Assembly: GCF_003334385.1 (NCBI RefSeq)
Contig: NZ_QOWN01000025.1
Length of the DNA stretch: 64,000 nt
Strand: one strand, 5' to 3'
Source: Escherichia coli
GTDB taxonomy: Bacteria; Pseudomonadota; Gammaproteobacteria; Enterobacterales; Enterobacteriaceae
Notes under the pieces: generated by a model
What the model was told of the DNA's origin: nothing
The model's database searches: none
The model's input: only the letters and a program-made list of their open reading frames with translations
In this document: positions 60,825-63,829 of the stretch, piece by piece
How positions within the stretch are numbered: position 1 is the first letter of the stretch
How the letters are laid out: each line of letters opens with the position of its first letter
Made by a program: the position numbers and the translations under genes

Positions 60825-61100
60825 ATGACTTATTCTTTAAAACAATTAAAGGTTTTCGTCACAGTAGCGCAGGAGAAAAGTTTTAGTCGTGCAGGAGAGC
60901 GTATCGGCCTGAGCCAGTCGGCAGTGAGTCACAGTGTGAAGGAACTGGAAAATCATACTGGTGTTCGCCTGCTGGACAGAACCACGCGTGAAGTGGTGCT
61001 TACAGATGCAGGGCAGCAGCTGGCTTTGCGTCTTGAGCGACTGCTGGATGAACTGAACAGCACGTTGCGCGATACCGGGCGTATGGGGCAACGATTATGA
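60825..61100 (+). pseudogene. yfeR: LysR-family regulator YfeR, truncated to the N-terminal HTH domain (about 91 codons)
   Basis: [42 protein letters not shown]... is a LysR HTH; the ORF stops at a TGA overlapping the xapB ATG; no co-inducer-binding domain follows. Confidence 0.8.
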
Positions 61101-62353
61101 GCATCGCGATGCGCTTAAAGGTAATGTCCTTTTTGCAATATTTTATCTGGGGGAGCTGGCTGGTTACCCTCGGCTCTTACATGATTAATACTCTTCATTT
61201 CACCGGCGCTAATGTTGGCATGGTTTACAGTTCCAAAGGGATCGCCGCGATTATTATGCCTGGTATAATGGGGATCATCGCAGACAAATGGCTGCGCGCA
61301 GAACGTGCATACATGCTGTGTCACCTGGTGTGTGCGGGCGTACTTTTTTATGCGGCATCCGTAACTGATCCGGATATGATGTTTTGGGTGATGTTAGTCA
61401 ATGCGATGGCGTTTATGCCGACTATTGCGTTATCGAACAGCGTCTCTTATTCCTGTCTTGCCCAGGCAGGGCTTGACCCGGTGACCGCTTTCCCGCCCAT
61501 TCGCGTTTTTGGTACGGTGGGGTTCATTGTCGCGATGTGGGCAGTAAGCCTGCTGCATCTGGAATTGAGTAGTCTGCAGCTGTATATCGCGTCCGGTGCG
61601 TCATTGCTGCTGTCGGCTTATGCGCTGACTTTGCCGAAGATTCCGGTTGCGGAGAAAAAAGCGACCACATCGCTTGCCAGCAAGCTGGGTCTGGATGCCT
61701 TCGTGCTGTTTAAAAATCCACGCATGGCCATCTTTTTCCTCTTTGCCATGATGCTGGGTGCGGTACTGCAAATTACCAACGTTTTTGGTAATCCGTTCCT
61801 ACATGATTTCGCCCGTAACCCGGAGTTTGCTGACAGTTTTGTGGTGAAATATCCCTCCATTTTACTGTCAGTTTCACAGATGGCAGAAGTGGGCTTTATA
61901 CTGACTATCCCATTCTTTTTAAAGCGATTTGGCATTAAAACCGTCATGCTGATGAGTATGGTGGCCTGGACGCTGCGCTTTGGCTTCTTCGCCTATGGCG
62001 ATCCGTCAACAACCGGATTTATTTTGCTGCTGCTGTCGATGATTGTTTATGGCTGTGCATTCGATTTCTTCAATATTTCTGGTTCGGTATTTGTCGAACA
62101 GGAAGTTGATTCCAGCATTCGTGCCAGCGCGCAGGGGCTCTTTATGACCATGGTAAATGGTGTCGGCGCATGGGTTGGCTCGATTCTGAGTGGCATGGCA
62201 GTAGATTACTTTTCGGTGGATGGCGTAAAAGACTGGCAAACTATCTGGCTGGTGTTTGCAGGATATGCTCTTTTTCTCGCAGTGATATTTTTCTTTGGGT
62301 TTAAATATAATCATGACCCTGAAAAGATAAAGCATCGAGCGGTGACTCATTAA
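61097..62353 (+). CDS. xapB: xanthosine permease (NupG-family nucleoside:H+ symporter)
   Basis: 418 aa; NupG-like sequence immediately upstream of xapR. Confidence 0.88.
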
Positions 62354-62405
62354 AAGGATTCGCGGCTCTGCTCTTCAGAGCTGCTTTTATGATAAAGGTT
62401 AATTA

Positions 62406-62564
62406 GTGAAAGATATTTTATTTTCTTCCGGCGTTGGTTTTGGTATTGGTGCTTTGTTTACAATCGTGCGCTTGCCTATTCCTGTACCAAATGTATTACC
62501 GGGTATATTATCCATTGTGTTTATGTATGTCGGATATCTGGTGGTGAAATACTTTATGCCATGA
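62406..62564 (+). CDS. candidate small hydrophobic protein (52 aa, GTG start) between xapB and xapR
   Basis: gtg...tga encoding VKDILFSSGVGFGIGALFTIVRLPIPVPNVLPGILSIVFMYVGYLVVKYFMP; weak SD aaagg 7 nt upstream; too short for the supplied ORF track. Confidence 0.35.
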   Translation: MKDILFSSGVGFGIGALFTIVRLPIPVPNVLPGILSIVFMYVGYLVVKYFMP

Positions 62565-62604
62565 TAATTTAATACGATGTATTTATTATATGGAGCACTT
62601 AATT

Positions 62605-63489
62605 ATGGAACGCGTATACAGAACAGATCTTAAGTTGCTCCGTTATTTTCTTGCCGTAGCGGAAGAGTTGCATTTTGGCCGCGCAGCAGCGCGTTTAAAT
62701 ATGTCTCAGCCTCCGCTCAGCATTCATATTAAAGAGCTGGAAAATCAACTCGGCACGCAGCTTTTTATTCGCCATTCGCGCAGCGTCGTACTGACACACG
62801 CGGGCAAAATCTTGATGGAAGAATCGCGTCGATTGCTGGTGAATGCTAATAATGTATTGGCTCGGATTGAACAAATAGGTCGGGGAGAAGCAGGGCGGAT
62901 TGAACTCGGCGTAGTGGGAACGGCAATGTGGGGACGGATGCGCCCGGTTATGCGGCGATTCCTCAGGGAAAATCCTAACGTTGACGTTCTTTTTCGCGAA
63001 AAGATGCCCGCGATGCAAATGGCCTTGCTGGAACGCCGCGAACTTGATGCCGGGATCTGGCGAATGGCGACAGAACCACCGACTGGTTTTACCAGCTTAC
63101 GGTTGCATGAATCGGCGTTTCTGGTGGCGATGCCTGAAGAGCATCATCTCTCATCATTTTCCACCGTCCCGCTGGAAGCGCTACGTGACGAGTATTTTGT
63201 TACAATGCCGCCCGTTTACACTGACTGGGATTTTTTGCAGCGAGTTTGCCAGCAGGTGGGATTTTCACCGGTTGTTATTCGCGAAGTTAATGAACCGCAA
63301 ACGGTACTCGCTATGGTCAGTATGGGCATTGGTATCACATTGATAGCGGACAGCTACGCACAAATGAACTGGCCAGGTGTCATTTTCCGTCCGCTCAAAC
63401 AGCGCATCCCTGCAGATTTATATATTGTTTATGAAACACAGCAGGTGACGCCCGCGATGGTTAAGCTGTTGGCTGCATTGACACAGTAG
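62605..63489 (+). CDS. xapR: LysR-family xanthosine-responsive activator XapR
   Basis: ORF 62590..63489; Met at 62605 gives 294 aa (MERVYRTDLKLLRYFLAVAEELHFGRAA...). Confidence 0.9.
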   Translation: MERVYRTDLKLLRYFLAVAEELHFGRAAARLNMSQPPLSIHIKELENQLGTQLFIRHSRSVVLTHAGKILMEESRRLLVNANNVLARIEQIGRGEAGRIELGVVGTAMWGRMRPVMRRFLRENPNVDVLFREKMPAMQMALLERRELDAGIWRMATEPPTGFTSLRLHESAFLVAMPEEHHLSSFSTVPLEALRDEYFVTMPPVYTDWDFLQRVCQQVGFSPVVIREVNEPQTVLAMVSMGIGITLIADSYAQMNWPGVIFRPLKQRIPADLYIVYETQQVTPAMVKLLAALTQ

Positions 63490-63565
63490 GTGAGGAGACA
63501 GGAATTGCCGGAAATAGTAGTCTGCTAAGTGAAGCGCATCAGGCAATTTCGCAAATCGCAGATAG

Positions 63566-63594
63566 CAAAAAAGCGCCTTTAGGGCGCTTTTTTA
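63566..63594. terminator. rho-independent terminator hairpin, copy 1
   Basis: aaaaaagcgcctttagggcgctttttt; sits in the duplicated 60-bp unit. Confidence 0.7.
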
Positions 63595-63722
63595 CATTGG
63601 TGGGTCGTGCAGGATGACTCGCTTCGCTCGCCCTTCGGGCCGTCGCCGCGAGCGGCTCCGTTGTTTCGCTGCGCTCAACTCAAACCTGCTGCAGGTTCGA
63701 ATCTTTGAGTATCGCAGATAGT

Positions 63723-63750
63723 AAAAAAGCGCCTTTAGGGCGCTTTTTTA
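63723..63750. terminator. rho-independent terminator of the val-lys tRNA operon, copy 2
   Basis: aaaaaagcgcctttagggcgctttttt immediately 3' of lysV on the minus strand. Confidence 0.8.
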
Positions 63751-63753
63751 CAT

Positions 63754-63829
63754 TGGTGGGTCGTGCAGGATTCGAACCTGCGACCAATTGATTAAAAGTC
63801 AACTGCTCTACCAACTGAGCTAACGACCC
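63754..63829 (-). tRNA. lysV: tRNA-Lys (anticodon UUU)
   Basis: Reverse complement reads GGGTCGTTAGCTCAGTTGGTAGAGCAGTTGACTTTTAATCAATTGGTCGCAGGTTCGAATCCTGCACGACCCACCA. Confidence 0.95.

Follow-up and report, generated by a model that had tools for sequence, protein, structure and literature searches.

The window, a 64,000-nucleotide stretch of Escherichia coli DNA (assembly GCF_003334385.1, contig NZ_QOWN01000025.1), is K-12-like and runs on the strand opposite to that of NC_000913.3 at ~2.52 Mb. Genes occur in the order yfeH, a truncated yfeR, xapB, xapX, xapR, RtT and the lysV/valY tRNA genes on the minus strand. The xanthosine/H+ symporter gene xapB occupies positions 61097 to 62353 on the plus strand, according to the ORF listing and the RefSeq annotation of the identical K-12 sequence. 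RefSeq places xapR, which encodes a LysR-type activator of 294 amino acids, at 62605 to 63489 on the same strand. Between the two genes lies the subject of this analysis, xapX (62406 to 62564, plus strand), a frame of 52 codons with a GTG start and a TGA stop that encodes a small membrane protein of the XapX-domain/DUF1427 family.

The initial annotation had proposed this GTG-initiated frame, preceded by a Shine-Dalgarno (SD)-like aaagg 7 nucleotides upstream. Both elements are present: the frame is found in the sequence and in the ORF listing, and AAAGG can be read directly at 62394 to 62398 on the plus strand, 7 nucleotides before the GTG. In NC_000913.3 this GTG corresponds to position 2522676 on the minus strand. 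The translation also agrees with the peptide given at that time, with the initiator read as methionine. In RefSeq, xapR begins 40 nucleotides after the xapX stop. The mechanical ORF list instead starts xapR at an ATG at 62590 (299 amino acids), 15 nucleotides earlier than the RefSeq ATG at 62605 (294 amino acids), and the gap between xapX and xapR is therefore 25 or 40 nucleotides depending on the start chosen. GGAG occurs 9 nucleotides upstream of the ATG at 62605.

A terminator scan located a 9-bp GC-rich hairpin (62362 to 62384) followed by a TTTTAT run, spanning 62362 to 62390 together (plus strand), between the xapB stop and the SD-like sequence of xapX. The predicted fold of this region includes the hairpin, and the region overall is not exceptional (z = -1.6). 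Most other genera carry a GC-rich stretch of different sequence at the same position, which looks hairpin-like by eye, and the changes between K-12 and the B2 strain UM146 also appear, by eye, to keep the pairing. The hairpin could be a terminator-like or attenuating element acting on read-through from xapAB to xapX. With such an element between xapB and xapX, expression of xapX from the xapA promoter may be low.

Matches resembling sigma-70 promoters are no commoner in the spacer than in shuffled sequence. A gSELEX study placed a peak of RpoN (sigma-54) holoenzyme in the xapB-xapR spacer and assigned it to xapR (PMC8743547); since the spacer comprises positions 62354 to 62604, this peak would fall on or beside xapX. 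A scan of the spacer with the sigma-54 consensus gave no enrichment and no convincing -24/-12 motif. An Rfam search over 62200 to 63800 found nothing on xapX, and returned only RtT and tRNA downstream. RtT (63598 to 63723), downstream of xapR, is flanked by two copies of a terminator-like segment, aaaaagcgcctttagggcgctttttt, together with a tRNA 3' end. The copies lie at 63567 to 63597 and 63723 to 63753 on the minus strand, and each has the same weak, sub-threshold Rfam hit. RtT with two flanking terminator-like copies is a known K-12 arrangement.

A precise deletion of ~2.6 kb distinguishes the window from K-12, with its junction at 61090 to 61092 and a 3-nucleotide microhomology (AAC). The deletion takes yfeR from about codon 90 on, yfeN, the xapA promoter region, xapA and the SD sequence of xapB. 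What is left of yfeR is a remnant of 91 codons (60825 to 61100), whose TGA overlaps the xapB ATG (ATTATGA). The xanthosine operon here thus lacks both xapA, its enzyme gene, and the promoter region that belonged to it; xapB-xapX-xapR remain identical to K-12. This junction is spanned by none of 5426 complete E. coli genomes.

The length of the xapX frame says little about whether it is a gene. When the 251-nucleotide spacer (35% GC) was shuffled with preservation of dinucleotides, a plus-strand ORF of at least 52 codons appeared in 538 of 5000 shuffles (11%). We therefore rejected ORF length as evidence, and the case for a gene comes from conservation.

Scanning a single genome for each species, we retrieved seven loci from Enterobacterales with the order xapA-xapB-xapX-xapR, in Escherichia sp., Pseudocitrobacter, Entomohabitans, Phytobacter, two Chimaeribacter species and Pragia. 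Salmonella has the same gene order at the same chromosomal site, with xapX called at 52 amino acids. Across eight Enterobacterales genera, xapX is exactly 52 codons long and free of insertions or deletions, and in the window and the seven loci the position of its start codon, GTG or ATG, does not shift. Upstream of the start, all eight orthologues have a purine-rich SD-like motif (AAGG, AAGGAGG, GGAG or similar), at a spacing, judged by eye, of ~5-8 nucleotides. In the seven loci, identity to the window protein is 71-98% for XapX, 63-96% for XapR and 77-98% for XapB, and XapX identity is equal to or above that of XapR.

The pattern of substitutions is that of a coding sequence. Among Enterobacterales orthologues, pairwise dN/dS ranges from 0 to 0.15, with dS saturated, and variable alignment columns number 19, 10 and 45 at codon positions 1, 2 and 3. 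Within E. coli, seven of the 159 positions of xapX distinguish K-12 from UM146. These differences are all at third positions and all synonymous, with no non-synonymous change, so both genes encode WP_000651752.1. The same two strains differ by 70 nucleotides and 6 amino acids in xapB and by 32 nucleotides and 5 amino acids in xapR. Purifying selection on the xapX frame is therefore apparent both across species and within E. coli. The initial annotation had called for an analysis of conservation and synonymous substitution, and the outcome is codon-level conservation with no frame-disrupting insertions or deletions. The listed rows of a Ribo-seq table, which are an excerpt, hold no entry at 25224xx-25227xx, where xapX is located. 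We consider it nearly certain that xapX is a real protein-coding gene of the XapX family.

The gene is already known. The initial annotation had called it unannotated, which is correct for the curated K-12 record NC_000913.3, where no feature stands between xapB (b2406) and xapR (b2405). The description does not apply to RefSeq, in which PGAP calls the frame as a "DUF1427 family protein", WP_000651752.1, and does so for another MG1655 record too. Of 5426 complete E. coli genomes, 4079 (~75%) contain the spacer, and the number of extra matches suggests that xapB is present in about as many. When 40 spacer matches were sampled across the range of identities, 39 carried the annotation "DUF1427 family protein", and the fortieth genome lacks the whole yfeN-xapABXR block. 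The identical sequence is found in public protein collections, where at least 1000 contigs carry it. It is also entered as "xapX domain protein, TRANSMEMBRANE" in the supplement of a census of intergenic small ORFs from enterobacteria published in 2024 (PMC11188072). Because the family is named and the gene is in RefSeq, xapX is not a discovery.

Family membership is clear from the NCBIfam model TIGR03510, "XapX domain", on which the peptide scores 64.2 bits (E = 5.8e-18; profile positions 2-48 of 49), with a curated cut-off of 27.8 bits. The name of the model fits the xap locus, and xapX sits between xapB and xapR as that name implies. A Pfam-A scan of the 52-amino-acid protein returned no family even at E <= 10, and thus no match to PF07235 (DUF1427). 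However, relatives at 35-52% identity carry precomputed PF07235 hits, and RefSeq applies the DUF1427 name to XapX itself. The enteric branch therefore appears, from these sequence comparisons, to be beyond the reach of the Pfam model yet within the family. A 2005 domain census noted a plant-associated distribution of the DUF1427/XapX family (PMC554113), which is not borne out by members in enterics, Bacillota and viruses. That census is all that our search of the literature on XapX and DUF1427 returned; it found no functional study, and no citation of WP_000651752.

The family is large. A profile search of 1.84 billion representative sequences found 77 relatives at E <= 1e-3, and a search seeded with an alignment extended the family to at least 1766 sequence clusters. 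Among the best 120 of the 1766 clusters, relatives are about 49-108 amino acids long and include no domain fusions.

XapX is strongly hydrophobic (GRAVY 1.31), with hydrophobic stretches at residues 4-21 and 30-47 (mean Kyte-Doolittle values of 2.0 and 2.2). The initial annotation had pointed to GxxxG spacing and to one or two transmembrane segments. The glycine motifs are indeed present, and two helices are predicted by AlphaFold and by hydropathy. Given an alignment of relatives, AlphaFold models XapX as a helical hairpin (pLDDT 93.2) with helices at residues 2-20 and 31-50. The first predicted transmembrane helix (codons 2-20, 62409 to 62465, plus strand; pLDDT ~92-95; hydropathy 2.0) presents a face formed by the run G9-x-G11-x-G13-x-G15, within which the small-xxx-small motifs are S7xxxG11, G9xxxG13 and G11xxxG15. 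The turn (codons 21-30, 62466 to 62495, plus strand) is non-helical in the model and contains the family signature [K/R]-L-P-x-P-x-P. The second predicted helix (codons 31-50, 62496 to 62555, plus strand; hydropathy 2.2) carries the conserved residues G33, I37 and G43. Across 35 diverse relatives, P28 and G43 never vary, and conservation reaches 90% or more at G11, G15, L23, P24, P26 and I37. XapX is thus predicted to be a two-helix membrane hairpin with an LPxPxP turn and helix faces of Gly, Ser and Ala.

A Foldseek search of the PDB with the hairpin model returned no matches, and a profile search of PDB sequences returned only filamentous-phage coat proteins at chance level (E > 1). A search of PHROGs gave no hits. 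As a crude test of self-association as a homodimer, two linker-joined copies of XapX were modelled by AlphaFold with 51 sequences, giving a low-confidence result (pLDDT 60.8, pTM 0.39).

The genes that accompany XapX-domain proteins differ among lineages. In Pragia fontium, deoC begins 20 nucleotides after the xapX stop, giving the order xapA-xapB-xapX-deoC-xapR (locus L013, 6180-6950). Its product, a deoxyribose-phosphate aldolase, scores 220 bits on TIGR00126. The position of deoC between xapX and xapR places xapX inside a catabolic operon rather than in a regulatory spacer.

A second nucleoside cluster is found in an Enterobacterales lineage known from metagenome-assembled genomes (MAGs). 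It consists of nupC, yjdM, an xapX-like gene, an adenosine-deaminase-like gene, deoB and deoD (loci L042-L046; L035, 5782-6171; L042, 5001-5237). The nupC gene belongs to the CNT family, and the XapX-domain gene is single-copy, 45% identical, and scores 59 bits on TIGR03510. The adenosine-deaminase-like protein, of 336 amino acids, is encoded 24 nucleotides downstream of the xapX-like gene; its assignment comes from a weak match of 43 bits, and a Pfam-A scan of it gave no hits. Three Bacillus genomes with differing upstream genes have yjdM, which encodes a PhnA-type zinc-ribbon protein, ~116 nucleotides after an XapX-domain gene (loci L050-L052, 3501-4111). The adjacency of XapX-domain and yjdM genes also occurs in the Enterobacterales MAG lineage, in the reverse order.

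Outside Enterobacterales, we found 20 loci in which two XapX-domain genes, one encoding a long and one a short form, occur in tandem ~230-260 nucleotides apart. They come from Pandoraea, Oxalicibacterium, Afipia, Ancylobacter, a Xanthobacteraceae MAG, Geminicoccaceae, an Actinomycetota MAG, Sulfobacillus, two Bacillota MAGs, Syntrophorhabdaceae and Candidimonas. Three of the paired proteins, from two loci, were checked and all pass TIGR03510. A formamidase-related gene directly adjoins the pair in 19 loci, and in the remaining one the contig begins at the pair. Because this neighbour scores below the FmdA cut-off, we describe it as acetamidase/formamidase-type. The 19 loci span Beta- and Alphaproteobacteria, Actinomycetota, Bacillota and Syntrophorhabdaceae, and so at least five major lineages. 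Beside the pair and its formamidase-related neighbour there is often a gene for an AraC- or GntR-type regulator. Within 5 kb, eight of the 20 loci encode no polytopic membrane protein at all, and where one occurs in the remaining loci its position is not conserved, which suggests that the tandem pair is the only membrane component of an acetamidase/formamidase-type module. The loci were retrieved with one peptide pattern derived from a narrower alignment, which biases the sample, and they include close relatives such as six from Pandoraea; the counts are therefore indicative rather than a census.

Other contexts are more varied. An XapX-domain gene follows an RND pump in Endozoicomonas, and another relative follows an FMN reductase gene. 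In phage-like metagenomic contigs, a large branch of XapX-domain proteins, each 51 amino acids long, is encoded between recA and a gene for a PD-(D/E)XK nuclease, and XapX-domain genes in such contigs are near DNA polymerase III alpha. By tblastn, we also detected a copy in Haloarcula californiae tailed virus 1 (HCTV-1; KC292029.1, 46369-46518; hypothetical protein 83) and an unannotated copy in Geobacillus virus E3 (KP144388.1, 75919-76077). Coupling to a transporter is strict in Enterobacterales, with xapB in the xap locus and nupC nearby in the MAG lineage, and is seen in the one RND-pump case, but the tandem-pair loci, Bacillus and viral contigs show no such coupling.

The explanation that best accounts for these observations is that xapX is the conserved fourth gene of the enterobacterial xanthosine locus, and encodes a two-helix XapX-domain protein that is an accessory of the module. 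We give this reading a probability of roughly 0.6. The protein would insert into the inner membrane and would act there as a small accessory component of a nucleoside-catabolic module. Its transcription would occur by read-through of the hairpin from the xapA promoter, which is activated by xanthosine and XapR, or together with xapR, or in both ways. Strict linkage to xapB and the occurrence of a second nucleoside cluster favour a role in nucleoside uptake or catabolism, for which XapB is the obvious candidate partner. XapB would be the most likely partner of XapX, and self-association is an alternative.

That XapX serves XapB and the xanthosine module in particular is a more tentative proposition, which we regard as possible. 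The initial annotation had noted that a position between a transporter and its activator is typical of small membrane proteins that modulate transporters. A function of XapX as a modulator of XapB is thus putative, as it is drawn from the position of the gene. Relatives encoded with no transporter nearby suggest that transporter modulation is not the general role of the XapX family.

The same relatives suggest that XapX-domain proteins can operate without a dedicated transporter, which keeps alive a different kind of explanation. XapX-domain proteins might be autonomous membrane devices, such as oligomeric glycine-zipper pores or minimal channels for small nitrogenous solutes, or membrane tethers for soluble catabolic enzymes. 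E. coli XapX would then function on its own rather than through XapB, and might, for instance, deal with a substrate or product of nucleoside catabolism. Such autonomy would suit the tandem pairs, 19 of 20 of which are beside an acetamidase/formamidase-type gene and eight of which have no polytopic membrane protein within 5 kb, as well as the conservation of the glycine-rich helix faces. However, these loci derive from a single peptide pattern and many are closely related (six from Pandoraea), no pore or transport activity is known for any XapX-domain member, and the tandem-fusion model is of low confidence. Moreover, enteric XapX is single-copy and strictly linked to xapB. On balance we judge autonomous function to be somewhat unlikely for E. 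coli XapX.

A broader proposal is more speculative still, and we consider it doubtful. XapX-domain proteins may be an unrecognised, very widespread class of minimal two-helix oligomers, distributed over bacteria, phages and an archaeal virus, that serve modules for the catabolism of small nitrogenous compounds, either as a channel or permease or as a dock for enzymes. They would form homo-oligomers, or hetero-oligomers from the long and short members of pairs, and the modules would include acetamidase/formamidase-type clusters, purine-nucleoside clusters and the E. coli xap operon.

It is improbable that xapX matters mainly for xapR, whether as an upstream ORF that sets xapR expression or through a product that modulates XapR at the membrane. 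The proximity of the genes invites this idea, since a separate xapR promoter would hardly fit into a gap of 40 nucleotides. The end of xapX is overlapped by a weak promoter-like match (62561 to 62589), the RpoN-holoenzyme peak is in the spacer (PMC8743547), and LysR-, AraC- or GntR-type regulators are encoded near many family members. Promoter-like matches are, however, no commoner here than in shuffled sequence, and the same peptide fold occurs in contexts with no downstream regulator. The distance from xapX to xapR varies from ~40 to ~890 nucleotides, with deoC intervening in Pragia, and selection acts on the amino acid sequence of XapX, not on its translation alone. This selection and the variable distance make a purely regulatory upstream ORF unlikely.

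Less probable again is a toxin- or holin-like peptide that perturbs membranes, carried along by a xap island that moves horizontally. Only ~75% of E. coli genomes have the xap block, and phage-like contigs, HCTV-1 and Geobacillus virus E3 all contain XapX-domain ORFs. But the viral copies are in replication modules rather than lysis modules, PHROGs returned no hit, no antitoxin or antisense partner was seen (Rfam finds nothing over xapX), and synteny in the catabolic operon is stable and vertical across genera. A chance ORF in an AT-rich spacer, whose true content would be only a xapB terminator and a xapR promoter, is compatible with the 11% of shuffled spacers that hold an ORF this long and with the omission of xapX from the curated K-12 annotation, but is refuted by the conservation data, namely an exact length with no insertions or deletions across eight genera, dN/dS of at most 0.15 with only synonymous change within E. 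coli, and a family of at least 1766 sequence clusters.

The absence of xapX from NC_000913.3 leaves a conserved membrane-protein gene unlisted inside a classic small regulon of K-12, which is a curation gap. Gene lists and screens that rely on this record are therefore likely to overlook it. Its length of 52 amino acids also falls between the cut-off of small-protein surveys (50 amino acids or fewer) and the usual cut-off for ORFs (60 amino acids or more). Bistable switching driven by transport has been modelled with the xapABR circuit as a minimal system (PMC7205307), and a membrane component beside XapB that is unaccounted for could affect models of this switch. Constructs designated ΔxapAB and ΔxapABR may or may not remove xapX. 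The tandem pairs, the second nucleoside cluster and the viral copies provide concrete hypotheses for a domain of unknown function. If XapX-domain proteins do prove to be oligomers that serve catabolic modules, E. coli xapX would offer a tractable model for the whole family, and the quantitative models of the xapABR switch would lack a component.

Three known groups of membrane proteins offer comparisons. AmiS and UreI are six-helix channels for amides or urea, and are encoded in amidase or urease operons. No sequence relationship to XapX-domain proteins was detected, and the resemblance is one of genomic context that concerns the paired relatives, not E. coli XapX directly: tandem XapX pairs adjoin acetamidase/formamidase-type genes, and so provide a membrane component beside an amide-hydrolysing enzyme.

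A second group comprises small inner-membrane proteins that bind and tune transporters, as AcrZ does with AcrB, KdpF with KdpABC, MgtS with MgtA and PitA, and SgrT with PtsG. These proteins mostly have a single helix, occur in narrow lineages, and each have a demonstrated physical partner. XapX resembles this ~30-50-amino-acid class in being hydrophobic and encoded beside or within a transporter operon. It differs in that it is predicted to be a two-helix hairpin, in that its family spans several phyla and viruses, and in that many members have no transporter nearby; XapB is only a candidate partner. The closest comparison is with the XapX domain itself (TIGR03510, corresponding to DUF1427 of PF07235). 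E. coli XapX is a direct member of this family, with the same two helices joined by an LPxPxP turn, and nothing structural sets it apart.
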